Of a stretch of DNA of 64,000 nt, positions 28,265-44,752 are shown piece after piece. Source of the stretch: Candidatus Eiseniibacteriota bacterium (GTDB lineage: Bacteria > Eisenbacteria > RBG-16-71-46 > CAIMUX01 > VGJL01); the NCBI GenBank assembly GCA_963792585.1, contig CAWBWI010000006.1, positions 544,001-608,000 of the forward strand, given 5' to 3'. A program made the position numbers and the translations under genes. The notes under the pieces were generated by a model. That model was given only the letters and a program-made list of their open reading frames with translations, did no database searches and was not told where the DNA came from. The stretch's first letter is position 1. Each line of letters opens with the position of its first letter.

Positions 28265-28705
28265 GTGGACGCCAAGCGGGAGCGCTTCATGACGATCCCG
28301 GTCGTCGTGGGGATCTGTCTGGCAGCCGTGGCCGGATCGGGAACGGTCTTGTATCAAACACGCTTCGCCAATCCCTCCGTCCAGGAATACTTCTCCCTGA
28401 TCAACATCGGTCAACTCCTGGTCATCAGCCACGTCCACTTCTTTGGTTACGCGGCGATGGGAGTCCTGATGTACACGCTCGGGCGGCGTCAGGGGGCGGC
28501 ATCGGATCCCCGTTTTGGAACCGTGCTGGGACTGGCGATCGCCGCGGGCATCTCCGACATCCTCTCGTGGTGGGGAGTGATCTACGTGACTCCCCTCTTC
28601 CGGTTCGTCACGTACATCGCGGGAGCCGCTTTCGTCGGCGGGATTCTGCTTTCCGGATTGATGGTCCTTCTGGCCTGCCGCAAGGCGGCAGTCGCATCGA
28701 GGTGA
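28265..28705 (+). CDS. Small four-TM membrane protein with an SHxHFFG motif
   Basis: Hydrophobic helices, LLVISHVHFFG, DILSWW; GGAGG SD; first gene of the cytochrome cluster. Confidence 0.7.
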   Translation: MDAKRERFMTIPVVVGICLAAVAGSGTVLYQTRFANPSVQEYFSLINIGQLLVISHVHFFGYAAMGVLMYTLGRRQGAASDPRFGTVLGLAIAAGISDILSWWGVIYVTPLFRFVTYIAGAAFVGGILLSGLMVLLACRKAAVASR

Positions 28706-28712
28706 AAAGGGA

Positions 28713-29117
28713 ATGAGAAGACGGATTCGGTGGGCGCCGGCCTTCGCGCTCGCCCTGATGGTCGTGTGCGTGCCGGCCTACGGGCAGGGCGGTTACAACA
28801 AGGCCGCCTTCGAGACGGTCATGGAAGACGCCACGAAGCAGATGCGGGTGCTTCTGGGGACGCTCATCGGGGAAGACTGGGCAAAGGCGCAGGCCGGTTC
28901 GGCCGCGATCGCAGAACAGGCGAAGAAGATCCACGCGTTGACCCCGAAGGTCGGCGCAGACAAGATCGCGGACTTCCAGGCGCATGCCGACTCGCTCGAA
29001 GCGCGCGCGAACCGGCTCACGGCGGCCGCGAAGGCCCGCGACGCGGCCAGAGCCTCCGCCCTCTACGGCGCAACCGTCGGTACCTGCATGGACTGCCACA
29101 GGATCTTCCGCAAGTAG
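28713..29117 (+). CDS. Periplasmic class II (c'-like, four-helix) monoheme cytochrome c
   Basis: Signal peptide, helical A/K-rich body, C-terminal CMDCHRIFRK. Confidence 0.85.
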   Translation: MRRRIRWAPAFALALMVVCVPAYGQGGYNKAAFETVMEDATKQMRVLLGTLIGEDWAKAQAGSAAIAEQAKKIHALTPKVGADKIADFQAHADSLEARANRLTAAAKARDAARASALYGATVGTCMDCHRIFRK

Positions 29118-29149: not shown

Positions 29150-30253
29150 ATGACCCGAAGAGTCGTCGCATTCTCGATCGCGCTGATCGCCATCGTCTCG
29201 ATCGCACCCGCGCTCCGGGCGCGACCTCTCTATGCGGCGCGCACGGGTATGGCCTGCGCGCGCTGCCACGTCGATCCGAACGGCGGCGGCATGCGCACGG
29301 GCACCGGCTTCCTCTACGCTCTGAACCTTCACACGATGGCGCCATCCGAAGAGCGCGAGGCGACCCTCGATCCGAAGATCTCCGACGGTCTGAGGCTCGG
29401 CGGCGACATGCGCACGCAGTACATGCAGGACGTCCACAACGAGCTGCGCAATCGCTCGACCTTCTTCCTGATGCAGGCGACCCTGTACCTATCCGCCAAC
29501 CTCTCCGACAACACGACGCTCTACTACGCCAACGACCAGGGACGCACGACCGAGGCGTTCGGACTGATCGGCGGCCTGCCGCTCGGCACCGTACTCAAGG
29601 TGGGCCGCTTTCTCCCCGCCTATGGGATCGAAGAGGAAGACCATACCCTCTTCACGCGCGACTCGCTCGGCTTCGGCACTTCCGCGGAGGACACCGGCAT
29701 CGAACTCACCCTCGCCCGCGGCACGAGGTCGCTCACGGTCGCGGCCGTCAATGGTACGCGCGGGATCCTCGACGACAACCCGCAGAAAGCGCTCGTTGCC
29801 CGGGCCTGCTGGTACAACGACCGCATCGGGTATGGACTGAGCGGCTTCACGAACACTCCCTACTCGGCCGAGAGGAGCCTGCGTTTCGGGGCCTTCGGTC
29901 AGTTCCACCATGGACCGTTCGTGGTACTCGCCGAGTACGACCGCGGGGAGGATACCCCCGACGAAGGCGTGTTGCGAAAGTCCGAATACCTGATGGTGGA
30001 CGGTTCCTGCACGGTCGGGGAGAGAACGACCCTTCGGGCGACCTACGATCGGGTCGACCCGAACACGGAGTACGCCGAAACCGCCCGCGATCGCGTCGGA
30101 ATCGGTCTCGACGCCGACCTGTCGCCGTTCACCCGGCTGCTCCTGCGAGCGCGGGGCACACGACAGTACGGCCATGACGATTATGGAACGCGTCTCTACG
30201 GCACCGATCGAGACACCTACGACCTGATCGCCCAGATCGCCTTCGGCTTCTGA
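29150..30253 (+). CDS. Monoheme cytochrome c-porin fusion (Cyc2-like architecture)
   Basis: Signal peptide, PLYAARTGMACARCH right after the cleavage site, amphipathic beta-strands, KVGRFLPAYG, terminal Phe (DLIAQIAFGF). Confidence 0.82.
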   Translation: MTRRVVAFSIALIAIVSIAPALRARPLYAARTGMACARCHVDPNGGGMRTGTGFLYALNLHTMAPSEEREATLDPKISDGLRLGGDMRTQYMQDVHNELRNRSTFFLMQATLYLSANLSDNTTLYYANDQGRTTEAFGLIGGLPLGTVLKVGRFLPAYGIEEEDHTLFTRDSLGFGTSAEDTGIELTLARGTRSLTVAAVNGTRGILDDNPQKALVARACWYNDRIGYGLSGFTNTPYSAERSLRFGAFGQFHHGPFVVLAEYDRGEDTPDEGVLRKSEYLMVDGSCTVGERTTLRATYDRVDPNTEYAETARDRVGIGLDADLSPFTRLLLRARGTRQYGHDDYGTRLYGTDRDTYDLIAQIAFGF

Positions 30254-30433: not shown

Positions 30434-30802
30434 ATGAAACCTGGCAAGAAGCACGTCGCCGTCGAACGGACGATCCTTGCGGGTGGCGTGTTGGCCGTCC
30501 TCTTCCTCGCAGGATGCGGGGGCAGCACCAAGCCAAAGGACACGAGTGGCGATCCCCCCGGTGACACGCCAACCTACACGGCGGACGTCGGCCCGATCAT
30601 CGAGGTTGGATGCACCTGCCATCAGCCCGGCGGCATCAAGTATGCCTCCGTCCCCCTGGACACCTATGCGCGCGTCTTCGCCCGAAGGGCTCTGATCAAG
30701 CAGAGGGCGGGCGTTGAGGGATCGATGCCCCCGACGGGCGCGCTCCCCCAGGCGAAGCGGGAGACGATCATCGCGTGGGTCGACGGCGGCGCGCCGGAAT
30801 GA
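30434..30802 (+). CDS. Monoheme cytochrome c lipoprotein with contracted CxCH motif
   Basis: Lipobox LAGC, TYTADVGPII..CTCH, GSMPP axial Met, IIAWVDGGAPE. Confidence 0.8.
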   Translation: MKPGKKHVAVERTILAGGVLAVLFLAGCGGSTKPKDTSGDPPGDTPTYTADVGPIIEVGCTCHQPGGIKYASVPLDTYARVFARRALIKQRAGVEGSMPPTGALPQAKRETIIAWVDGGAPE

Positions 30803-31554: not shown

Positions 31555-32265
31555 TCAGACCCTCTCCGCCATCACCCTTCGCCGCAGCTTCACGATCGCT
31601 TCGGTCGGATTGAGCGCCTTGGGACACGCCTCGACGCAATTGAAGATCGTGTGACACCGCCAGAGGCCGTGCTTGTTGTCGAGCATCTGCGAGTCGCTCC
31701 TCGAGCCCCTCGTCCCGCGTGTCGAAGACGTAGCGATACGCCTTCAGCAAGGCCGCGGGCCCCAGGAACTGCTGGCTGCTCCAGTAGACCGGACACGACG
31801 ATGTGCATGCACCGCAGAGGATACACTCCCACGTCCCGTCGATCAGCTTCCGCTCCTCGGGCGATTGGAGGCGTTCCTTGTCGGTCGGGGACTGCTTCGA
31901 GCAGATCAGCCAGGGCTTGATCGACTCGTAGCGGGCAAAGAAGTCGCTCTGGTCGACAACCAGGTCGCGCAGCACGGGGAAGGCGCGCAGCGGCTCGACG
32001 GTGATGACGCCCCCCTTGCACGTCGAGACCTGGAGTTCGCAGGCCAGATCGTTCTTGCCGTTGATCGTCATGGCGCAGGAGCCGCAGATGCCGTGCCGGC
32101 ACGAGCGCCGGAACGCGAGGGACCCGTCCTGCCGCCACTTGATCTCGTTCAAGCGCGTCGAGGACCGTCCACGCGGGCTGCACCTCGATCTCGTACTCCT
32201 TGAAGGCGCCCGCCTTGGGATCCTCGGGAGTCGCTCCGCCAGATCCGGAAGGTTCGCTTCATCAT
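31555..32265 (-). CDS. sdhB: Succinate dehydrogenase iron-sulfur subunit; about 3 frameshifts
   Basis: FRRSCRHGICGSCAM, CILCGACTSSCP and WRCHTIFNCVEACPK are distributed over different frames. Confidence 0.9.
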
Positions 32266-32271
32266 CCCCTC

Positions 32272-34023
32272 CTAGAACTTCCGCTCTTCCGGCTGGAAGC
32301 GGTGATGACCACGGGCCGGTACGCGAGGCGGGTGTCCCCCTTGTCGTCCAGCCAGCAGAAGGTGTGCTTGAGCCACTCCTTGTCGTTGCGCCCCGGCGCG
32401 TCCTTGCGCCAGTGCGCGCCGCGGCACTCGGGTCGCGCCAGGGCACCGGTCACGATCGGCACGCTGAAGTCGAGCATGTGCCCGAGCTCGAGCGCCTCGA
32501 TCAGCTCGGTGTTGCAGTGCAGGTTCGTGTCGGCGACCCGCACGTGGCGATAGCGGTCGCGCAGAGCACGGACCTCGTTGAGCTGCGGTTCGAGGTCGCC
32601 GGCGTTGCGAAAGATCCCGCACCGCGCGGACATGCCGGCTTGCAGGATGTCACGGAGGTCCGCGGCGGCGCTCACCGCCCCCTTCCTTCGACAGCAGGCG
32701 GGCGATCTCGTCGCGCGAAGGGCCGTCGGGATCGGTCGGGCAGGTCGAGCGGGTCCGCCGGGTGCGCGCGAAGGTCGGCCAGGATCGTGAGTCCGGCCCG
32801 CCGGCCATAGACGCTGCACTCGAGCGTCGAGTTCGTGCCCAGCCGATTCGCCCCGTGGACGGAAACGCAGGCGCACTCCCCGGCCGCATAGAGGCCCGGG
32901 ACGGGAGTGCCGTTCTCGTCGGCCGCCACGCGCGTGTCGTCGTCGTCGGGATCCCGCCCATCGAGTAGTGCGCGCTCGGCTGAATCGGGATCGGCTCCTT
33001 CGTGCAGTCGAGGCCGCAGAACTTGATCGCAAGCTCGTGGATCTGCGGCAGCACCTCGTGGATCTTCTCTGCGCCGAGATGGGTGAGGTCGAGATTGATA
33101 TAAGGCTGGCCGTTCACACCACGTCCCTCGTCGATCTCGCTCTGCTCGGCGCGGGAGACGACGTCGCGGGGCGCCAGCTCCATCTTGGCCTTGGCGTACT
33201 TGTCCATGAACCTCTCGCCCTTGCCGTTGTAGAGCAGTCCGCCCTCGCCGCGGGCGGCCTCGGAGACGAGGATCCCGTGCGGGTAGATGCCCGTCGGGTG
33301 GAACTGGACGAACTCCATGTCCTCGAGCGGCAGGCCCGCGCGCAGGATCATCGAAAGGCCGTCGCCCGTGTTGGCGTGGGCGTTCGTCGTGATCTTCCAG
33401 GCACGCGCGTAGCCGCCGGTCGCGAGCAGCGTCGCCTTGGCGTGGAAGACGTGGAGCCCGCCCTTCTGGAAGTCCCACGCGACCAAACCCGACGCAGGTG
33501 CCGTTCTTCATGAGCAGCTGCGTTACGTAGAACTCGTTGTAGAAACGGACCCCGTTCTTCACGCACTGCTCGTAGAGCGTGTGCAGCTGCGCGTGCCCGG
33601 TCCGGTCGGCGGCATAGCAACTGCGCGCGACCTCCCCCTTCCCGAAGTCGGCGTAGTGGCCGCCGAAGGGGCGCTGCGCGATCTTCCCATCGGGCGTGCG
33701 CGAGAACGGCACGCCGAGGTGCTCCATCTCGTAGATCGTCGGGATCGCCTCGCGCACGAGGATCTCCTGCGCGTCCTGGTCGCCGAGGTAGTCGCTGCCC
33801 CGGACGGTGTCGTAGAGGTGCCACTCCCAGCTGTCTTCCTGCATGTTGCCGAGCGCGGCCGGCACAGCCGCCCTGGGCCGCGCCGGAGTGGGAGCGGGTC
33901 GGGTAGACCTTCGAGATCACGGCCGTGTCGAAGTGCTGGCTCGTCTTCAGGGCCGCGTAGAGCCCGGCGATGCCGGCCCCGACGACGACCACTTCATGCC
34001 GGTGTCGTTCCGATGGCCATCAT
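32272..34023 (-). CDS. sdhA: Succinate dehydrogenase flavoprotein; about 7 frameshifts
   Basis: [67 protein letters not shown]. Confidence 0.92.
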
Positions 34024-34031
34024 CCCCTCCC

Positions 34032-34425
34032 TCACCGCACCGCGGCCGTGGCCTGGAACGGCAGGATCGTCACCGTGCCAAGGATCGCCAGGAGCACGCC
34101 AAGCGCCAGAACCGCGCAATAGAGGGTCACCCGCAACCACGGCCGGTGGACCCCCTCGTTGAGCACGACCAGGACCCCGCGAAGACCGTGGAAAAGGACG
34201 ATGCCCAGGAAGAGCAGGTCGATCAGCTTCCACCATGGATTCGCGAGGCGCTGGACGACATTCGCGTAGTCGACGTCGAAGGCTCCCCTGAGGGGGTCGC
34301 CGAGGACGTAGTGGGTCACGAGCAGGTGCGCCAGTGACGACGGGAACGAGGAGCAGTCCGGTGATCCTCTGCATGAACCAGCCGAACATCCCGCCGGAGT
34401 TCAGACCGCGATCGCGCGCGCTCAT
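34032..34425 (-). CDS. sdhD: Succinate dehydrogenase membrane anchor; frameshift near 34340
   Basis: WFMQRITG, FHGLRGV; ATGA overlap with the sdhC stop. Confidence 0.8.
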
Positions 34426-34785
34426 CGTCCGCCCCCGATCACGAGCTGCAGGATCGGGTAGGCGCCGAACACGAGTCCCGCGGCGGCGATCCCCGCCATC
34501 CACCAGAAGAGTCTTCTTGTGGGTGCGCGAGCCTCCGCCCCACTCGATGATAAGGATCCGGATCCCGTTCATCGCGTGATAGAGGATGATCCCCAAGAGC
34601 CCGATCTCGAGCAGTTTGAAGATCGGATGGGAAACCACGTGCATCACCTGATTGAATCCCTGCTCACCCTGATGAAGGTGGTGGATCACCCAGATGTGGA
34701 TCGCCAGGTAGACCGTGATCGCGACCCCCGTGATCCGGTTGAGCAACCAGGCCACATACCCGAGATGCCATCGGTAGATCATCAT
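34422..34785 (-). CDS. sdhC: Succinate dehydrogenase cytochrome b556 subunit; frameshift near 34510
   Basis: WLLNRITG, YLAIHI, YHAMNGIRIL. Confidence 0.85.
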
Positions 34786-34876
34786 CCCCTCCCCTCGTCC
34801 CGCACGCGAACACCGCGTACGGCAAACGGCACCGCGATTCTTGCATCCGACTCCCTGATGCGACAAGGAGCGAATG

Positions 34877-34899
34877 TTTCAGTCATCTAATGACTGAAA
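34877..34899. promoter_or_regulatory. Perfect inverted repeat TTTCAGTCAT-CTA-ATGACTGAAA, candidate operator
   Basis: 10-bp AT-rich arms with a 3-bp spacer, about 90 bp upstream of sdhC in a divergent intergenic region. Confidence 0.6.
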
Positions 34900-35016
34900 A
34901 CGGTGGTTCTCATACGACGGCTCCGCGGCCCGGATGCTGGACTCCCTATCTTTCGTCAGTTACACTTGTAGGCGCGATAGGAAGTACAGAAAAACGAAAA
35001 CGCCGGAGTGGATCAA

Positions 35017-36956: not shown

Positions 36957-38327
36957 TTGATCGATCTCGAGAGCGCACTCGGGCTGGCGGCAGCAGCAGT
37001 CCTGCTTGGCGCGGGAGGCTACTTCCTGGGGCGTCGAACGCGCGCACGCGACCGACGCGACCGCACTCGGTTGACCTCTGCGCGCGAGCAGGGTCTCCAC
37101 ATTCCGGCATCGTTGCACCCGGTCTTCGATCCGGACCTCTGCATCGGCAGTCTGGCCTGCGTGGCCGCCTGTCCGGAAGGCGACGTGATCGGAGTCGTCA
37201 ACGGTGTCGGCACGCTGCTCGTCGGCGCGAACTGCATCGGACACGGTCGCTGCGCGGCGGAGTGTCCGATGCACGCCATCCAGCTCGTCTTCGGCACCAG
37301 CGAGCGCGGAGTCGACATCCCACGGGTGACGCCGCACTTCGAGTCGACGGTGCCGGGCATCTATGTCGCCGGCGAACTGGGCGGAATGGGACTGATCCGC
37401 AACGCCGTGCGCCAAGGGGCGGCGGCAATCCAGCATCTCGCCGAGAGTCTGCCGAAGCATCGCGAGGGTCCGGTGGACGACGTCGTGATCGTGGGGGCCG
37501 GACCGGGAGGTTTCTCGGCCGCGCTCGCCGCGCGCCGCGCCGGTCTGCGCTTCCGTGTCATCGAGCAAAACTCCTTCGGCGGGGCCCTCGCCCACTATCC
37601 GCGGCAGAAGCTCGTGCTCACCGGCCCGATCGAGCTTCCGCTCGGGGGCAAGCTCGACCGGCCCCAAGTGACCAAAGGGGAGCTGGTCCGCTGGTGGAGC
37701 ACGGCCCGCGAGGAGCACGGAATCGAGATCCAAGAGGGGGAGCGGGTAGAGACCATCGATGGCACTGACGGCGCATTCCGCGTCGTCACATCCCGCGCAA
37801 GCTACCCGACACGGAAGGTGGTCCTCGCGATCGGTCGCAGGGGCACGCCCAAGCGCCTCGGCATTCCCGGCGAGGAACTGCCGCTGGTCACGTACAACCT
37901 GATCGAGCCCGAGCAGTACGAGGGGAAGAAGGTCCTGGTCGTCGGCGGCGGCGACAGCGCCATCGAGGCGGCATGCCAGCTCGCGGGGACGGCCGCGGCC
38001 GTCACGCTCTGCTATCGGGGTGAAGTCTTTCACCGCTGCAAACAGGTAAATCGCGTCCGGATCGAAGCGCTCGAGCGGGGCGGCAGTGTGCGGATCCTGC
38101 GCTCGGTCCAGCCGGTCCGGTTCGAGCCCTCCGGAGCCGTACTCGAGCACACCAAGGAGGAGGGACACCCGATCCCCTCGCACCCCGACCTCACACGGAG
38201 TGCGGAAGGCGCCTCACTTCTCGCGATCGACTTCGCGATCATCTGCGCCGGAGGGGAGTTGCCCGCCACCCTCCTCCATCATCTCGGGCTTCAGGTCGAT
38301 TGGCACTATGGAGGGGTCGTTTCGTGA
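36957..38327 (+). CDS. Membrane-anchored ferredoxin-type Fe-S + FAD/NAD(P)H oxidoreductase (TrxB/YpdA-like)
   Basis: N-terminal TM, CIGSLACVAACP, CIGHGRCAAECP, VIVGAGPGG, LAIGRRG, VVGGGDSA, YRG. Start is TTG 36957 or ATG 36894. Confidence 0.88.
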   Translation: MIDLESALGLAAAAVLLGAGGYFLGRRTRARDRRDRTRLTSAREQGLHIPASLHPVFDPDLCIGSLACVAACPEGDVIGVVNGVGTLLVGANCIGHGRCAAECPMHAIQLVFGTSERGVDIPRVTPHFESTVPGIYVAGELGGMGLIRNAVRQGAAAIQHLAESLPKHREGPVDDVVIVGAGPGGFSAALAARRAGLRFRVIEQNSFGGALAHYPRQKLVLTGPIELPLGGKLDRPQVTKGELVRWWSTAREEHGIEIQEGERVETIDGTDGAFRVVTSRASYPTRKVVLAIGRRGTPKRLGIPGEELPLVTYNLIEPEQYEGKKVLVVGGGDSAIEAACQLAGTAAAVTLCYRGEVFHRCKQVNRVRIEALERGGSVRILRSVQPVRFEPSGAVLEHTKEEGHPIPSHPDLTRSAEGASLLAIDFAIICAGGELPATLLHHLGLQVDWHYGGVVS

Positions 38328-39277
38328 GGCCGCCGTCATTCTCGGAGGACGGTGGTCTTGCATCCGGGTTCCGCGGCGGCGCGTCCCCCCACCAGGCGGA
38401 GATCGATCGGATCATCGCGCGCAAGCGACGTCTGGGGCTCGCGCTGACCATTCTGGGCGCCATCGTCCTTGCAATCCTGATCCTGCGGGGATGGCGCTAC
38501 TATCTCCTCGCCCCCCCTGCGCGTCTCGACGACCCCCAGAATCGGCTACTGCGACCATCGGGAGGTTGGGGACACGGCGTGGGCATCGCCGCCACCCTCG
38601 TCATGCTGGCCAACTTCCTCTATCCGATGCGCAAGCGAACCCGATGGATGGCGCGGATGGGACCGGTGCCCCTCTGGCTCACGTTCCACGTCTTCGTTGG
38701 GATCATGAGTTCGATCGTGATCCTCTTCCACGCGGCCTTCCGGTTCAACAACCTGATCGCGACCCTCACATACGGCAGCCTCGTGATCGTGGTGACGACC
38801 GGGTTGATCGGGCGCTACATTTACGCCATGGTTCCGGGCGCGGGCGAACGCGACCGCGTGGCGCTGGCGGACCTGCAGCGGTCGTGGGCCGATCTGCATA
38901 TCGAGGTCAGCCGCGAGCTCGGGGAAAGGCGCCGACCACCCTGGCTGGGGGCGCTCCTTGATTCGCCTGCGATGCCCCGCGACGCGTCCGCCGCAGGCGC
39001 GCTACGCGCGGTCCTTGCTTGGCCGATCGTGACGATGCGGGCCCGATCCGGCGCGCGCCGGATCGCCTCGGTATTGTCGCCCGGATCCGCCGTCGCGCTC
39101 CGCGCGGACGTCGAGCGGATGGTGCGGCTCCGCCTGCAGATCGAGTTCTTCGGCGGGATCAAGCGCTTGCTGACCACCTGGCGGTCGGGTCACGCCCTGC
39201 TCGCCGTGTTCCTCGTCCTCGTCATCGTCATTCACGTGGCCGTTAGCATCACATTCGGGTACCGATGGATCTTCTGA
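38324..39277 (+). CDS. His-rich multi-pass membrane protein, possible b-heme electron carrier
   Basis: GTG/TGA overlap with a GGAGG SD; TM histidines in GHGVG, WLTFHVFVG, LFHAAF, WRSGHAL, VIHVAV. Confidence 0.75.
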   Translation: MRPPSFSEDGGLASGFRGGASPHQAEIDRIIARKRRLGLALTILGAIVLAILILRGWRYYLLAPPARLDDPQNRLLRPSGGWGHGVGIAATLVMLANFLYPMRKRTRWMARMGPVPLWLTFHVFVGIMSSIVILFHAAFRFNNLIATLTYGSLVIVVTTGLIGRYIYAMVPGAGERDRVALADLQRSWADLHIEVSRELGERRRPPWLGALLDSPAMPRDASAAGALRAVLAWPIVTMRARSGARRIASVLSPGSAVALRADVERMVRLRLQIEFFGGIKRLLTTWRSGHALLAVFLVLVIVIHVAVSITFGYRWIF

Positions 39278-39288
39278 CGCCAGGAGCG

Positions 39289-41838
39289 ATGCGCCCGGAT
39301 GCGCGACCCTTCTACGGGATCCTCGCTGCGGCGATTCTCTTTTGCCTCGGTCCGTGCGCATCGCGGGCACAGACCGTCTCTCCAGGCCCGCTCTCGAAGG
39401 CGCACGCCGACCTCGAGGGGGTAAGGAACTGCACGCAGTGCCATGAACTTGGCCGCCGCGAGATCTCCGCAGATCGCTGCCTTGCCTGCCACAAGCCGCT
39501 CGGCACGCGGGTGCGCGCCGGCACAGGGTATCACGCGTCGAAGGATGTGGCGGGCACGCCCTGCGAGTCCTGCCACCACGAACATGCGGGCCGGGATCTC
39601 CGCCTCATCCGCTGGGAGCCGCCGCAGTCGGCTTTCGATCACACGAAGACCGGTTACATCCTGGAGGGGGCGCACTCCAGGCTCGCCTGCCGAGACTGTC
39701 ATGATCCTCGTGCCATCCGGGAGAGCGACGTTCGCGCCTGGATCGACCGTCACACGGCCGGCGAGACCTTTCTCGGACTCGATCGAGCTTGTGCTTCCTG
39801 TCATTTCGACGAGCACCGCGGGCAGTTCACCGGGGAGTGCTCGCGCTGCCACTCCTCCACCGCCTGGAAACCCGCCGCGGGATTCGATCACGATCGAACG
39901 CAGTACCCGCTTCGGGGCGCCCATCGTCCCGTAGCGTGCGAGCGGTGCCATCCCGCGCAGAGAGACCCCGCGTACGCCGCGAATGCACTCCCGAGACCGC
40001 GCACCGCGACCTATGCCCGATTCCACGGCGTCGCGCACGCGGAGTGCTCCGACTGCCACAAGGATCCCCACGTGGGGAGGATGGGCGGAGCCTGCGCGAC
40101 CTGCCACGTGACAGACGCCTGGTCTTCGATCGTCAAGTCCTCGAAGACCGGCGGTTTCGATCACGACAAGACACGCTATCCGCTCACCGGCCGCCACCGC
40201 GCGGTGGCCTGCGAGCGGTGTCATCCCGCGGACGCCGGGGGCAAACCCGTTCTGAGCGGCTTCGCCTTCAAGAGCTGCACCGACTGCCACGCCGACGCGC
40301 ACGCGGGGCAGGTGGCCGCCGGGGAGGGCGGGAGCGACTGCGCCCGCTGCCACGATGTCGAAGGATTCGCCCCGGCGCGATTCACATCGGCCGACCATGG
40401 CAAGACGCGCTACCCGCTGACCGGGGCGCACATCGCCGTCCCCTGCGGATCCTGCCATCCCGAGGATTCAACCATCGAGCCCGCCAAGGCGCCGCCGGGA
40501 ATCCGAAGCCGAAAGGCCGACTCCACTCGCCTCGCCTACGCGTCTATCGATCTCGAAGACTGCGCGAGCTGCCACGGCGATCCGCACGCGGGCCAGTTCT
40601 CCGTCGCGGCGGAAGCTCGGCCCGCCCGCATCTGCACTGACTGCCACGTCGTCGCGTCGTTCCACGAACTGCGATTCGACCACGCGAGGGACACGTCGTT
40701 CCCCCTGCGCGGCCGGCACGCGAAGGTCGCTTGCGTGGGCTGTCACGGCCCGCTCGGCGGCGACACGAGTTGGCGGGGACCGGACGTTGCCTGGCTCCCC
40801 AAGCGCCCGCCGGCATCCGGATCGACCGCAGCGTATCGGCTCATCCCAAACGCGTGCGCCGCTTGTCACCTCGACGTGCATCTCGGGCAATTTGACACCG
40901 ACACGAAGTGCGACTGCGCGCGCTGCCACACGGACGACGCGTTCCGCCCGGCCGCTCGCTTCGACCATGCAGGGGCTCGTTTCCAGCTATCCGGCGCGCA
41001 TGCAAAGGTGAAGTGCGAAGCCTGCCACCGAATGGTCGAGGTCCTTCCGGGGCGCAAGACGAGCCTCTACCGACCCCTCCCCACGACCTGCGAGGGATGC
41101 CACGTCGATCCGCACGCAGGGGCCTTCCGGATCGGCACCGCGGCGTGCGTCTCGTGTCATATCGCGACCACATGGACGCAGGTCGTTTTCGACCACAATC
41201 GAACCCGATTCCCGCTGGGCGCATCGCACACGGGCGTCGCGTGCGCGGCGTGCCACACATCGCCGTCGACCCTCCCGTCGATGGCCTGCGCCTCCTGCCA
41301 CGCAGATCCGCACGGGGGTCTGCTCGGCGTAGAGTGCGGGCGATGCCACGCCGGCGCCGACTTCCGCGATGGGGTGGATCTCGCCTTTCACGAGCGCACG
41401 CGCCTGCCCCTTCTGGGGCGGCACGCCGCGATCCCCTGCGCGGGGTGCCATGTGGATCGTGCTGCCGCCGATCCTGCCCGCCTCGATCCGCGCTGCTCCA
41501 GCTGCCACGAGAACGACTACCGGAGGACCGAGACGACCGGGATGTCGCACCAGGCGTGGGGGTTCGGTCGCTCGTGCGAGGACTGTCACGAGACTTTCCG
41601 TTGGGACCAGGTCGGTTTCCGCCAGCACGAGGCCTGTTTCCCGATCCGAACGGGACACCACAACGTCGCCTGCGGGGATTGCCACACGTCGCTGCCAAAG
41701 GAGCCGACGTCGGGATGCAACACGCGAACGGCGTCCTGCACGCGCTGCCATGGCTGCGGGCACCCGTCCGTCTCCGGTTTCGAGTGCAAGGATCGCAAAT
41801 GCTACGAGTGTCACCCAAGCGGCGGAGGCGGCGGATGA
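39289..41838 (+). CDS. Periplasmic multiheme cytochrome c with 30 CxxCH motifs
   Basis: Signal peptide; 30 CxxCH counted manually, arranged as 10 triheme units, most with FDH..T.(F/Y)PL.G.H. Confidence 0.95.
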   Translation: MRPDARPFYGILAAAILFCLGPCASRAQTVSPGPLSKAHADLEGVRNCTQCHELGRREISADRCLACHKPLGTRVRAGTGYHASKDVAGTPCESCHHEHAGRDLRLIRWEPPQSAFDHTKTGYILEGAHSRLACRDCHDPRAIRESDVRAWIDRHTAGETFLGLDRACASCHFDEHRGQFTGECSRCHSSTAWKPAAGFDHDRTQYPLRGAHRPVACERCHPAQRDPAYAANALPRPRTATYARFHGVAHAECSDCHKDPHVGRMGGACATCHVTDAWSSIVKSSKTGGFDHDKTRYPLTGRHRAVACERCHPADAGGKPVLSGFAFKSCTDCHADAHAGQVAAGEGGSDCARCHDVEGFAPARFTSADHGKTRYPLTGAHIAVPCGSCHPEDSTIEPAKAPPGIRSRKADSTRLAYASIDLEDCASCHGDPHAGQFSVAAEARPARICTDCHVVASFHELRFDHARDTSFPLRGRHAKVACVGCHGPLGGDTSWRGPDVAWLPKRPPASGSTAAYRLIPNACAACHLDVHLGQFDTDTKCDCARCHTDDAFRPAARFDHAGARFQLSGAHAKVKCEACHRMVEVLPGRKTSLYRPLPTTCEGCHVDPHAGAFRIGTAACVSCHIATTWTQVVFDHNRTRFPLGASHTGVACAACHTSPSTLPSMACASCHADPHGGLLGVECGRCHAGADFRDGVDLAFHERTRLPLLGRHAAIPCAGCHVDRAAADPARLDPRCSSCHENDYRRTETTGMSHQAWGFGRSCEDCHETFRWDQVGFRQHEACFPIRTGHHNVACGDCHTSLPKEPTSGCNTRTASCTRCHGCGHPSVSGFECKDRKCYECHPSGGGGG

Positions 41839-43517
41839 GAAGCGCCTTCATCGCCACCGCGATCGTCTGCCTCAGCGCCCTGTGGGCCGTCGCCGCGATC
41901 GCATCGCCGCTCGAGGGCCGCGTCGTCGGGCTCGCGGCCGACGCCGTCTACCTGGACCACGGCGGCCGCGACGGCCTGACGGTCGGATCGCTGATCATGA
42001 TCTTCCGGGATTTGGGGGACACGGCGCCACAGACGCTGACCATCTCCCGGATTGCGGATCACTTCGCGGCGGCGGGTCCAGTCCCGTCCGCCGGGGCGAT
42101 CGCGGTGGGCGCCCAATGGAGTCTCGTCGGCGGGATCGACGCCGAATTGGAACTCCATGCGAAGACGCCGGTTCCCCCTGAGCCGCTCCCGGATCCCGAA
42201 CTCCTCGCCGCGCGCTGGAAAGAAGCGCTCGCGGCGCCGCCACCGCTGATCGCATTCCATGGAGAACACCCCGCGCAGGCACGCGCGCCGCGAGGCGTGC
42301 GTATCCACGCGGCCGCGCTCTCCTATCCGACGAACACGAGCGCCTCGGGAAGCTACCAAGGGGGAAGGCTGGACCTGCGCTCGGCGGGAGGGATTTCACG
42401 GCGGACGGGGGTGGCGTATCGGATCGATCTCGATCTGGCGGGATGGGCGCAACGTTCCGACTTCTCGCGCCTGCGTCCCGCCGCCGACCCGTACCTGCTT
42501 GTCCGCGACCTCGCCATGGAGATCGCTCCGCCCGGGGGCGCCGTCCGCGCGACCGCTGGAAGATTTCGCACAGCGCAGTCGTTCGCAGGACCCATGATCG
42601 ACGGATTCGCCGCATCCCTTTCGCGGGAGTCGACGGGCGACGCCGTCGCTTCCCCGCCATCGAGACCGCCCGCAAGTGAGATTGGCGTCTACGGCGGTCT
42701 CCTTCCCGACCCTCTGACCCTCCGACCCGATTCGAAACGCACGGCCCTGGGCGCGTTCGCCTCGACAACGGCGGCCGTCTCCGAAAAAACCACCGGCCGC
42801 CTCGGCGCATCGCTCGAGATGCGCCGATTCAAGGGCGCGTCCTATGAGACGGGACGGTTCCGCCTCAACCTGGACCGCGCGGCGGGGATGGGCATCGAGG
42901 CGGGCGCCGCCGCTTGGCGTGAGTCATCCACCCTGCGCTTCGGCGACGCCCACGCATCGATCCGGGGATCCAAGGCGGCGCGATCCTATTGGCTCCTCTA
43001 CCGGGAGAGCGAGACCGCGTTCGACGCGAAACAGCGCGAAGCGATCCTCGATGTCTTCGGCGCTGAGGCGAATCCCACGCACAGGGCCCGCCGCGCCGAG
43101 GCGGGGCTATCGTGGACGAGATCCGAGAAGACGCGCGTGAGCGCAGTGGCCGGTCACGCGGGAGGCGACGGCGGTCTGAATCGCTGGATCCTCGAGCCGA
43201 CGGTCGAGGTGCGCCGTGAACTGTGGGCGCTTCGCACCTGGCGCTTCGGCTACCGCGGCTCCTTCGGCTGGCAGGAGGGGCACGAGGCCGATCTCGGCGG
43301 TCTCTTCGTCTTCGGAGCGTGGAGGTTCGACCTGCGACTCGGTGGCGGCGTCCTGCACCAGGGCAAGGCGCTGCGAACCACCCCGATCGGTCGTGGCTTC
43401 TTCAACTTGCGCCGTCCGATCGGCGAAAGCGGATCGCTTTCCCTGAACGCCTCCGGCAACGGCACCCTCCACTACGTCGGCGGCGCGGCGCGGCTGGCCT
43501 TCTCGAAGAGGTTCTAA
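41835..43517 (+). CDS. Putative outer-membrane beta-barrel protein with an N-terminal periplasmic domain
   Basis: ATGA overlap with the cytochrome stop, signal peptide, alternating beta-strand pattern, terminal RLAFSKRF. Confidence 0.7.
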   Translation: MRSAFIATAIVCLSALWAVAAIASPLEGRVVGLAADAVYLDHGGRDGLTVGSLIMIFRDLGDTAPQTLTISRIADHFAAAGPVPSAGAIAVGAQWSLVGGIDAELELHAKTPVPPEPLPDPELLAARWKEALAAPPPLIAFHGEHPAQARAPRGVRIHAAALSYPTNTSASGSYQGGRLDLRSAGGISRRTGVAYRIDLDLAGWAQRSDFSRLRPAADPYLLVRDLAMEIAPPGGAVRATAGRFRTAQSFAGPMIDGFAASLSRESTGDAVASPPSRPPASEIGVYGGLLPDPLTLRPDSKRTALGAFASTTAAVSEKTTGRLGASLEMRRFKGASYETGRFRLNLDRAAGMGIEAGAAAWRESSTLRFGDAHASIRGSKAARSYWLLYRESETAFDAKQREAILDVFGAEANPTHRARRAEAGLSWTRSEKTRVSAVAGHAGGDGGLNRWILEPTVEVRRELWALRTWRFGYRGSFGWQEGHEADLGGLFVFGAWRFDLRLGGGVLHQGKALRTTPIGRGFFNLRRPIGESGSLSLNASGNGTLHYVGGAARLAFSKRF

Positions 43518-43519
43518 AG

Positions 43520-44752
43520 GTGGATCGCTTCCTTCGAATCGCACTGCGCGCGCTCCCTGCCGGCATCGTCCTGCTCTGCGCGGGATGCTGGGGCGGGGGC
43601 GATTTTCCGCCCCTCGAGCGCCACGCCATCGCCGCATCGAACCACGGTCCCTATTTCCCGATCGGCGCGACAGACGTGCACCACGGCCTGGACTGCCTGG
43701 CCTGCCACGGGGGAACGGCGAGCTTCCTCGAGTTCACCTGCATCACCTGTCATGACCACGCGCAGGAGGTTACGGATCCCCAGCATCTCGGAATCCAGGA
43801 CTACGCCTACGGTCCGTCGACGTGCTACGGCTGTCACCCCAACGGATCCATCACGGGCGTGGACCATGCGTCGTTCTTTCCCATCACGGAGGAGACGAGG
43901 CACGCCGGCATACGCTGCGTCGCCTGCCATCCGCAGCCGACGGATCGCAAGGTGTTCACCTGTACGGAGTGCCACGATCACCGAGCGGAGATCAGCGATC
44001 CGGGTCATGCCGCCGTGGCCGGTTACGAATACGCCGACTCGGCCTGCTACCGGTGCCATCCCACGGGCGAGGCCATGACCCGCGTCCTACACGAATCGTT
44101 TTTCCCGATTCTCGCCGGCGCCCACGATGCCACCGCGTGCGCCGACTGTCACACCGACCCGAACAGCTTCGGCACCTACGACTGCATCGACTGCCACGAC
44201 CATCGGCAAGAGGTCAGCGACCCGGCACACGCGAACGTCCAGGGGTACAGCTTCGTCAGCACCGAGTGCTTCCGCTGTCATCCTACCGGCGAGTCGCTGA
44301 CACGATCGCAGCACACTCCGTTCTTCCCGATTCTGACCGGGCCTCACAGCACGACCCCCTGTGCGGATTGCCACACGGTATCAGGCGACTTCCGGACATA
44401 CGCATGTATCGAGTGTCACGACCACCGGCAGGAGATCACCGACCCCGCGCACGCTGGAGTCGCGGGTTACAGCTTCGTGAGCGCGGAGTGCCTCCGCTGT
44501 CATCCTACCGGCGAGTCGCTCAGCCGCGAGGAGCACGACCCCTTCTTCCCGATCCTGACAGGCCGGCACGGAGACATCGCCTGCGCGGAGTGCCACACCA
44601 TGACGGGGACATTCCGGGCGTACGAATGCATCGAATGTCACACGCACGAGTGCACTCGATCGAATAGCGAGCACCGCGAAGTCTCGGGTTACTCCTGCGT
44701 GAGCACGGAATGCTACCGTTGCCACCCGCGAGGAACAGAGGACGACTTCTAG
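43520..44752 (+). CDS. Multiheme cytochrome c lipoprotein with 15 CxxCH motifs
   Basis: GTG start, lipobox-like LCAGC, five triheme repeats. Confidence 0.93.
   Translation: MDRFLRIALRALPAGIVLLCAGCWGGGDFPPLERHAIAASNHGPYFPIGATDVHHGLDCLACHGGTASFLEFTCITCHDHAQEVTDPQHLGIQDYAYGPSTCYGCHPNGSITGVDHASFFPITEETRHAGIRCVACHPQPTDRKVFTCTECHDHRAEISDPGHAAVAGYEYADSACYRCHPTGEAMTRVLHESFFPILAGAHDATACADCHTDPNSFGTYDCIDCHDHRQEVSDPAHANVQGYSFVSTECFRCHPTGESLTRSQHTPFFPILTGPHSTTPCADCHTVSGDFRTYACIECHDHRQEITDPAHAGVAGYSFVSAECLRCHPTGESLSREEHDPFFPILTGRHGDIACAECHTMTGTFRAYECIECHTHECTRSNSEHREVSGYSCVSTECYRCHPRGTEDDF
43640..44740 (+). repeat. Five tandem 222-nt (74-aa) coding repeats
   Basis: First Cys codon of each unit at 43694, 43916, 44138, 44360 and 44582, an exact 222-nt period. 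Confidence 0.9.

Follow-up and report, generated by a model that had tools for sequence, protein, structure and literature searches.

A PCC3-type porin-cytochrome operon in which a putative di-heme membrane protein is paired with an iron-sulfur flavoprotein, a likely route from NADPH to the cell surface

The 64,000-nucleotide window analysed here (contig CAWBWI010000006.1 of a Candidatus Eiseniibacteriota bacterium, positions 544,001 to 608,000) contains five open reading frames (ORFs), A to E, on the forward strand at window positions 36957..44752. They are joined by stop/start overlaps of up to 13 nucleotides or a 2-nucleotide gap, which bears out the tight coupling claimed in an earlier note made from the letters of this DNA. 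The operon is real and well conserved. It encodes 45 CxxCH motifs, 30 in C and 15 in E, and the maxima among 2000 shuffles of each protein are four and three, respectively; the two multiheme cytochromes proposed earlier therefore stand. A sigma-70-like promoter and an above-chance terminator were looked for, and neither was found. Among the data sets listed as holders, none is of RNA, and the shares in those of DNA are all small. Judged by the features of its porin, cytochromes and membrane protein rather than by direct comparison with the type proteins, the operon fits a PCC3-type porin-cytochrome cluster. PCC3 comprises a porin, two repeat-built giant cytochromes and a di-heme membrane protein according to the accessible parts of He et al. 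2017 (PMC5566968); statements on this and the other publications on such clusters refer to their accessible parts throughout. The five genes are as follows.

A, 36957..38327, + strand: TTG start, 456 residues; N-terminal membrane anchor, 2x[4Fe-4S] ferredoxin domain and a thioredoxin-reductase-fold FAD/NADP(H) domain, read as permuted
B, 38324..39277, + strand: GTG start overlapping the stop of A, 317 residues; PCC3/PCC4-type inner-membrane protein with five predicted transmembrane helices, two WX3HX13H motifs and TGxxG, predicted to bind two hemes b
C, 39265..41838, + strand: 13-nucleotide overlap with the end of B, 857 residues; signal peptide, 30-CxxCH periplasmic cytochrome made of fused 20-heme and 10-heme modules
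D, 41835..43517, + strand: ATG overlapping the stop of C, 560 residues, C-terminal Phe; signal peptide, small N-terminal beta domain, linker and predicted 22-strand outer-membrane beta-barrel
E, 43520..44752, + strand: GTG start 2 nucleotides past the stop of D, 410 residues; probable lipoprotein whose five triheme repeats of 74 residues contain 15 CxxCH; predicted to be a cytochrome of the outer surface

Protein A scores over the Pfam cut-offs for the Pyr_redox_3 and Pyr_redox_2 families and for Fer4 families (4Fe-4S dicluster), in agreement with its earlier description as a membrane-anchored Fe-S/FAD/NAD(P)H oxidoreductase. Its N-terminus forms a hydrophobic helix followed by an Arg-rich stretch, which suggests that the catalytic part lies on the cytoplasmic side. 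The ferredoxin domain contains the cluster motifs C62-S65-C68-C72 and C93-H96-C99-C103. Among the 38-41 aligned homologs, the first motif reads C62-x2-(S20/C18)-x2-C68-x3-C72, and H96 of the second, C93-x2-H96-x2-C99-x3-C103, is kept in 38 of 38. The GGGDSA sequence of the flavin domain is conserved and R354 is present in 39 of 40 homologs; we take both to be NADP(H)-binding marks of the family. Sequence matches of A in the PDB are Bdr/YpdA, thioredoxin reductases (TrxR) and TrxR-fold ferredoxin-NADP+ reductases (FNR), and a fold search aligned 268 residues of an A-homolog model to 7a76 (Z 21.3, root-mean-square deviation 4.0). No CxxC was found in the flavin part, so A is probably an electron-transferring reductase and not a disulfide reductase; its identification as a thioredoxin reductase was rejected on the same ground.

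The segment that closes the FAD domain of canonical enzymes sits, in A, ahead of the first Rossmann motif. It weakly resembles canonical-enzyme residues 276-287 (E 0.003), the structural alignment with 7a76 ends at residue 282 of 326, and a paralog family of A starts with the same segment. We read the flavin domain as a circular permutation, with the C-terminal FAD-binding segment placed on the N-terminal side. A profile of the segment matched no other protein in the own genome. The paralogs are common; in them the same permuted flavin domain comes first, is fused to a membrane domain and is followed by a 2x[4Fe-4S] ferredoxin at the C-terminus (L129:7208-9454, L130:7676-10090 and L131:6478-8700). 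They have no neighbouring cytochromes and look like another NAD(P)H-to-membrane enzyme.

For PCC3 and PCC4, the protein of the inner membrane is defined by five helices, an SGXXG motif and two WX3HX13H motifs (PMC5566968). Protein B, in which the earlier note had recognised transmembrane histidines, carries W118/H122/H136, W286/H290/H304 and T159-G160-x-x-G163, where the family consensus has S for T159, in five predicted helices of transmembrane length. H122, H136, H290, H304, W286, G160 and G163 are invariant in an alignment of 15 homologs, and W118 is nearly so. Both WX3HX13H motifs occur in 123 of 124 full-length representatives, which come from the best 150 of 2199 representative matches. 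At the level of sequence, these motifs provide candidates for the bis-His b-heme sites that the earlier note had expected in B. Neither B nor D has a Pfam or NCBIfam match at E<=0.01, a PDB sequence search gave no family for them either, and an ESM Atlas search for the two families returned hypothetical-protein clusters only. Weak matches to Ferric_reduct (PF01794) occur in six of the 15 B homologs (best E 4e-4), with none in B of the window itself. The AlphaFold2 model of P0009, a homolog in which A and B are fused, has five long helices in its B part, a mean predicted local distance difference test score (pLDDT) of 91.4 and a predicted template modelling score (pTM) of 0.84. A scan of the genome contigs with B alone gave three loci.

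A and B are tightly associated across genomes. B is matched in 76 of 206 genomes of the own phylum; every one of the 72 genomes in which A has an ortholog has B as well, 72 of the 76 with B carry A, and 130 have neither, in counts that include related, and so not independent, genomes. Orthologs of A were taken to be present in 69 genomes with a best E<=1e-140 and in three more whose copies are truncated or frameshifted and either lie at the B locus or span the ferredoxin part. Weaker matches (about 1e-60 to 1e-95) span the flavin domain only and were assigned to the paralog. The four genomes with B only comprise two PCC4-like loci (G039, G044) and two partial matches. In the Myxococcota-type phylum, B is matched in 100 of 301 genomes, one of them unpublished (G388), and A and B lie on one ORF in all 43 loci inspected. 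These are 40 strong B-score loci on contigs long enough to read, together with L024-L026; selection by B score leaves the weaker B homologs under-represented. Among 29 own-phylum loci, a tally to which the short loci L003 and L016 do not belong, A is adjacent to B in 27 and fused to it in none. A sequence is present in 38 of the 150 B representatives, and all 22 representatives of at least 700 residues are fusions. A sequencing error as the cause of the split between A and B was rejected, since separate 317-residue B homologs exist at 77-91% identity. A quick tree was built from 68 A sequences, five partial ORFs being left out. In it, A of the window is sister to all 41 Myxococcota-type rows (Shimodaira-Hasegawa-like approximate likelihood ratio test, SH-aLRT, 99), apart from the 25 other own-phylum rows, a grouping in keeping with the gene order and with the 30 hemes of C.

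Distant B homologs adjoin other cytoplasmic redox modules, an FNR + 2Fe-2S reductase (L077, L078) or a cNMP/4Fe-4S protein (L023). In copper-resistance islands of Variovorax and Sphingobium plasmids, the B-family gene lies between the FNR/2Fe-2S reductase and a 7-CxxCH cytochrome (L077:5824-9510, L078:5974-9331). The fusions P0055 and P0024 bear insertions of about 200 residues. The insertion of P0055 resembles an FHA domain in its pattern, a hint of phosphorylation-based regulation.

Two cultured organisms carry related clusters. B matched 45 plasmid records, and among these matches only that of Emticicia oligotrophica (plasmid pEMTOL02, DSM 17448) is part of a full cluster, composed of ccsA, B, A, 23- and 40-CxxCH cytochromes and a 538-residue protein of unknown family. 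The 538-residue gene, 3' of the cytochromes, gave no match to the D profile at E<=1e-3. Sideroxydans ES-1 has the PCC3 clusters Slit_0867-0870 and Slit_1446-1449, and expression of both is lower on Fe(II) than on thiosulfate (Zhou et al., PMC8788666). Slit_0866, beside the former, is annotated as an FAD pyridine nucleotide-disulfide oxidoreductase, and among 43 Rossmann ORFs of the own genome its five published peptides fit A best (summed score 160; 98 for the next). In the ES-1 proteome, Slit_0866 protein is up on magnetite relative to Fe-citrate late in growth in two comparisons (differences 2.35, q 0.018; 2.55, q 0.003). The main text of the proteome paper does not name it, a full-text search for the tag gave no paper, and the publications covered do not count it among the four genes that define PCC3.

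The periplasmic cytochrome C is built of triheme repeats at 28.6 residues per heme, and its 20-heme and 10-heme modules are separate genes in many relatives. Protein E has a repeat spacing of 15/28/31 and 27.3 residues per heme, and its repeats are homologous to the C-terminal end of C. With 66 His in C and 37 in E, there are enough for distal ligands. The cytochromes are repeat-built, as claimed earlier, and C scores 41.9 bits against the DmsE/MtrA model, whose cut-off is 192.2. The lipoprotein assignment of E, also made earlier, becomes a probable one, as the lipobox C-A-G-C is non-canonical at position -3; relatives have AAGC, AAAC and ATGC (three of four inspected). The 10-heme end of C (41122-41838) contains invariant Cys outside CxxCH (alignment columns C172 and C199), candidates for disulfide bonds in a region that is predicted to point outward. 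In the corresponding cluster of some relatives, single cytochromes contain 63-85 CxxCH (L014:9801-15977; L015, L018, L068).

Protein D models as a barrel, the fold that the earlier note made a test of its proposal. The AlphaFold2 prediction (pLDDT 76.7, pTM 0.60) has 22 strands at residues 132-537 and no plug-sized domain. Foldseek matches it to the large outer-membrane barrels FimD, PapC, AlgE and FecA, and a word-based homolog search with D gave three proteins. When D was predicted together with residues 620-857 of C and four hemes, the complex scored 0.81 and the best control 0.00. Of 157 solved complexes, 116 attain the score mark applied, as do 2 of 215 mismatched pairs, counts that are only a rough guide here. 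The pLDDT of the partner is at least 58. Confident contacts run all round the barrel, at alternating strand residues and at loops assigned to the outer side, a pattern that fits a cytochrome in the barrel lumen. The modelling thus supports binding of the C-terminal decaheme module of C to D. A survey of gene neighbourhoods found the A/B pairing, D-family barrels and large numbers of CxxCH each in most of the relatives' loci inspected, which does not go against the co-occurrence anticipated in the earlier note. At least 20 CxxCH are present in 40 of the 43 Myxococcota-type and 26 of the 29 own-phylum loci, and a D-family barrel in 37 and 22, respectively, as detected with a profile to which most of those 37 loci themselves contributed.

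We consider it probable that the operon is a PCC3-type cluster whose B, paired with A and in many relatives fused to it, takes electrons from NADPH in the cytoplasm, rather than from quinones, and passes them out to the cell surface. The path that we infer, including its cofactors, the choice of NADPH over NADH, its direction, acceptor and energetics, would start in A, from NADPH to FAD and on to two [4Fe-4S] clusters, one of them His-ligated. An inner heme b (H122/H290) and an outer heme b (H136/H304) of B would then carry the electrons across the membrane, the 20-heme part of C would span the periplasm, and the 10-heme part would sit within the barrel D, in line with the predicted folds and D-C binding. 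Lipoprotein E would hand the electrons to an extracellular acceptor such as a metal, a humic quinone, an electrode or a partner cell. A and B together would be an analogue of NADPH oxidase or of yeast-type ferric reductase with a different flavin domain. NADPH, near -320 mV, lies downhill to typical bis-His hemes and outside acceptors. The membrane potential favours outward electrons and is spent by them, as in NADPH oxidases, and inward flow to NADP+ needs a donor well below -450 mV. These potentials and the direction of the membrane potential favour an outward wire over the alternatives. Because an electron moving from cytoplasm to periplasm spends membrane potential, the wire is probably not energy-conserving and may, instead of supporting respiration, act as a redox valve or a reductive tool, used for dumping reductant or for reducing metals and humics. 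The earlier note had proposed a trans-envelope conduit with an inner-membrane module linked to NAD(P)H; both now have support from conserved motifs, from the fusion and co-occurrence of genes and from modelled structures, and none of the three outcomes that the note had named as refuting was seen in the sequences and models. Its comparison, made with MtrCAB and Geobacter Pcc only, had missed PCC3.

Several observations weigh against this proposal. The fetched stretches of six of the 43 and seven of the 29 loci, some at contig or window edges, contain no D-family match, and E is the most variable part across loci, E-like genes being variable or absent in many relatives. Repeated D-C predictions differ strongly in register (0.89, 0.81 and 0.43), with contact agreement as low as 1%. 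A structure of the MtrAB complex has reportedly been solved, and the D-C result may stem from likeness to it. In fold searches of the fusion model the transmembrane domain obtained no match, the matches being filled by the flavin domain. Slit_0866 adjoins the porin gene and not that of the membrane protein, and Slit_1446-1449, the cluster better detected in the proteome, has an HD hydrolase and an aldolase as its neighbours and no adjacent A.

In the published model, the PCC3/PCC4 membrane protein is a quinone-active cytochrome b, as He et al. 2017 proposed from its likeness to the cytochromes b of bc1 complexes and hydrogenases (PMC5566968). Here, B would join the quinone pool, and A would be an accessory NAD(P)H:quinone entry point or a regulator. 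Weak Ni_hydr_CYTB matches in four of the 15 B homologs agree with such a role, as does the expression of one ES-1 PCC3 cluster without an adjacent A. We nevertheless think it unlikely, since A and B are fused in 43 of 43 loci and the phylum profile pairs them in 72 of 72 genomes. Moreover, a quinol oxidase working from the periplasmic side would not need two membrane-spanning heme pairs, and cytoplasmic redox proteins also adjoin the distant B homologs.

Alternatively, the conduit might end at oxygen or at periplasmic or outer-membrane targets, with A and B acting like an NADPH oxidase and the giant cytochromes storing charge and discharging little outside. A and B do resemble MsrQ and Fre, which serve a periplasmic acceptor (PMC5676040), the homologous three-gene modules of copper-resistance islands have no porin, the host has heme-copper oxidase family genes, and Emticicia oligotrophica is a cultured carrier. 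This ending is made improbable by the large barrel, which is co-conserved and predicted to bind the decaheme module, and by the lipoprotein-like E. We give very little credence to an inward wire, in which electrons from a donor outside the cell, for example Fe(II) minerals, would directly make NAD(P)H. PCC3 is found in iron oxidisers, Slit_0866 is higher on magnetite than on Fe-citrate, and a Cyc2-like gene lies 7 kb upstream in the window, but by textbook potentials the step from Fe(II) to NADP+ is uphill; the membrane potential also works against it, and a part that pumps protons is absent. The down-regulation of both ES-1 PCC3 clusters on Fe(II) versus thiosulfate (PMC8788666) speaks against it as well.

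If the outward NADPH wire is generalised, PCC3 would be a five-part machine headed by an unrecognised analogue of NADPH oxidase, with a TrxR-fold flavin domain, a His-ligated Fe-S cluster and a di-heme b domain. It would form a quinone-independent wire from NADPH to the surface, present in about one third of the genomes searched in two phyla and distinct from the quinol-fed Mtr and Pcc systems, and would argue against PCC3 as an iron oxidase. We put this wider proposal forward tentatively, its chances being somewhat short of even. PCC3 is routinely listed as a candidate for iron oxidation or extracellular electron transfer, with the quinone pool as its assumed metabolic link. An NAD(P)H flavoprotein that is conserved and often fused alters what is predicted for its donor, its direction and its energetics. 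The question becomes testable with a single fusion protein of about 750 residues and with the cultured carriers Emticicia oligotrophica DSM 17448 and Sideroxydans ES-1. If true, a wire drawing directly on NADPH would have uses in bioelectrochemistry, and likely extracellular electron transfer would extend to heterotrophs not counted as electroactive.

The genome has four over-cut-off matches to the cytochrome c assembly family PF01578 and encodes heme-copper oxidase family proteins at three places, so the host is not obviously an obligate metal respirer. Twenty-four ORFs contain at least three CxxCH, and further multiheme clusters lie at C2:337315-343811, C2:207942-211792, C3:860013-861872 and C6:880062-889293. 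The Cyc2-like gene of the window (29150-30253, + strand) encodes a fused monoheme cytochrome-porin of 367 residues with a signal peptide, ARPLYAART before CARCH and a C-terminal Phe. ARPLYAART is near the signature AXPXFAR[QK][TY] (10.1101/228056) and does not match it, and PXL is absent. The gene is preceded by genes for a small membrane protein and a cytochrome c' (PF01322) and followed by one for a small CxCH lipoprotein (28265-28705, 28713-29117 and 30434-30802). A succinate dehydrogenase-like operon, read from ORF pieces at about 31700-34900 on the - strand, and one heme-copper oxidase subunit I gene at C6:443509-444747 are broken across frames, probably by assembly errors; unlike them, the five conduit genes are intact.

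Like PCC3, the operon encodes a predicted porin and cytochromes made of repeats, one periplasmic and one predicted to be extracellular; they have 28.6 and 27.3 residues per heme, against 22-39 in PCC3. Its B agrees with a membrane protein of about 300 residues (317 here) containing two WX3HX13H motifs and (S/T)GxxG, D is modelled with the 22 strands that He et al. predicted for the porin of Leptothrix cholodnii, and the 15 CxxCH of E are within the published range of 10-35. PCC3 has been described as four genes, with a quinone-linked membrane protein and a function given as unverified (PMC5566968, PMC9900912, 10.1101/2025.02.27.639646), whereas a fifth gene here encodes an Fe-S flavoprotein. 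The periplasmic cytochrome has 30 hemes here, compared with a published median of 21 and 21-27 in Gallionellaceae (PMC9900912). PCC3 was reported in Proteobacteria; the present clusters are from two other phyla and a Bacteroidota plasmid.

MtrCAB/MtoAB and the Geobacter OmbB-OmaB-OmcB conduit likewise consist of a periplasmic cytochrome, a barrel and an outer lipoprotein cytochrome, and draw on quinol oxidases. The operon differs from Mtr in C, which stays below the TIGR03508 cut-off, and in D, which has no Pfam family. Bdr/YpdA and the TrxR-fold FNRs are the best sequence and fold matches of the flavin domain of A and share its lack of a redox CxxC; A differs from them in its membrane anchor, its own ferredoxin and the N-terminally moved FAD segment. 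The NADPH oxidase/ferric reductase (NOX/FRE) superfamily, including MsrQ with Fre (PMC5676040), couples a flavin unit that uses NAD(P)H in the cytoplasm with a bis-His di-heme domain in the membrane, an arrangement also predicted for A and B; both occur in split and fused forms. A and B differ from it in having a TrxR-fold flavin domain with two Fe-S clusters instead of the FNR fold, five helices instead of six, and output to a c-heme wire. Among the NOX/FRE motifs, the FAD motif was not found in A or B, and the sole match to the second lies inside a transmembrane helix of B.

PCC4, or ptdABCDEFG, combines in one operon a porin, multiheme cytochromes, a membrane protein that is ferric-reductase-like and belongs to the motif class of B, an oxidoreductase binding FAD/NAD(P) and a protein with 2x[4Fe-4S] (PMC5566968; 10.1101/2023.11.21.568154). 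It differs in its 4-, 5- and 10-heme cytochromes, the absence of an extracellular cytochrome and a cNMP-binding Fe-S protein, and the accessible text states no mechanism of NAD(P)H entry. With 30- and 15-heme proteins and an A without a cNMP domain, the operon lacks these distinguishing PCC4/Ptd features; locus L023, by contrast, has a PCC4-like layout. A preprint on peat deals with 8-13-heme systems and, in its accessible parts, mentions neither PCC3 nor FAD (10.64898/2026.05.27.727921). Our literature search, with subscription journals and image-only supplements outside its scope, found no publication tying PCC3 to NAD(P)H. Supplementary Figure 4 of He et al. 2017, one of those supplements, depicts the redox genes of PCC4 and may have a bearing on what is new here. 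The ptd operon, with its porin, FAD/NAD(P) oxidoreductase, cNMP/4Fe-4S protein and ferric-reductase-like protein, is of unknown function (10.1101/2023.11.21.568154) and is a precedent for a flavoprotein in a sister system of PCC3; the element that is new relative to the publications covered is the flavoprotein head as a part of PCC3, with entry of electrons from NAD(P)H.

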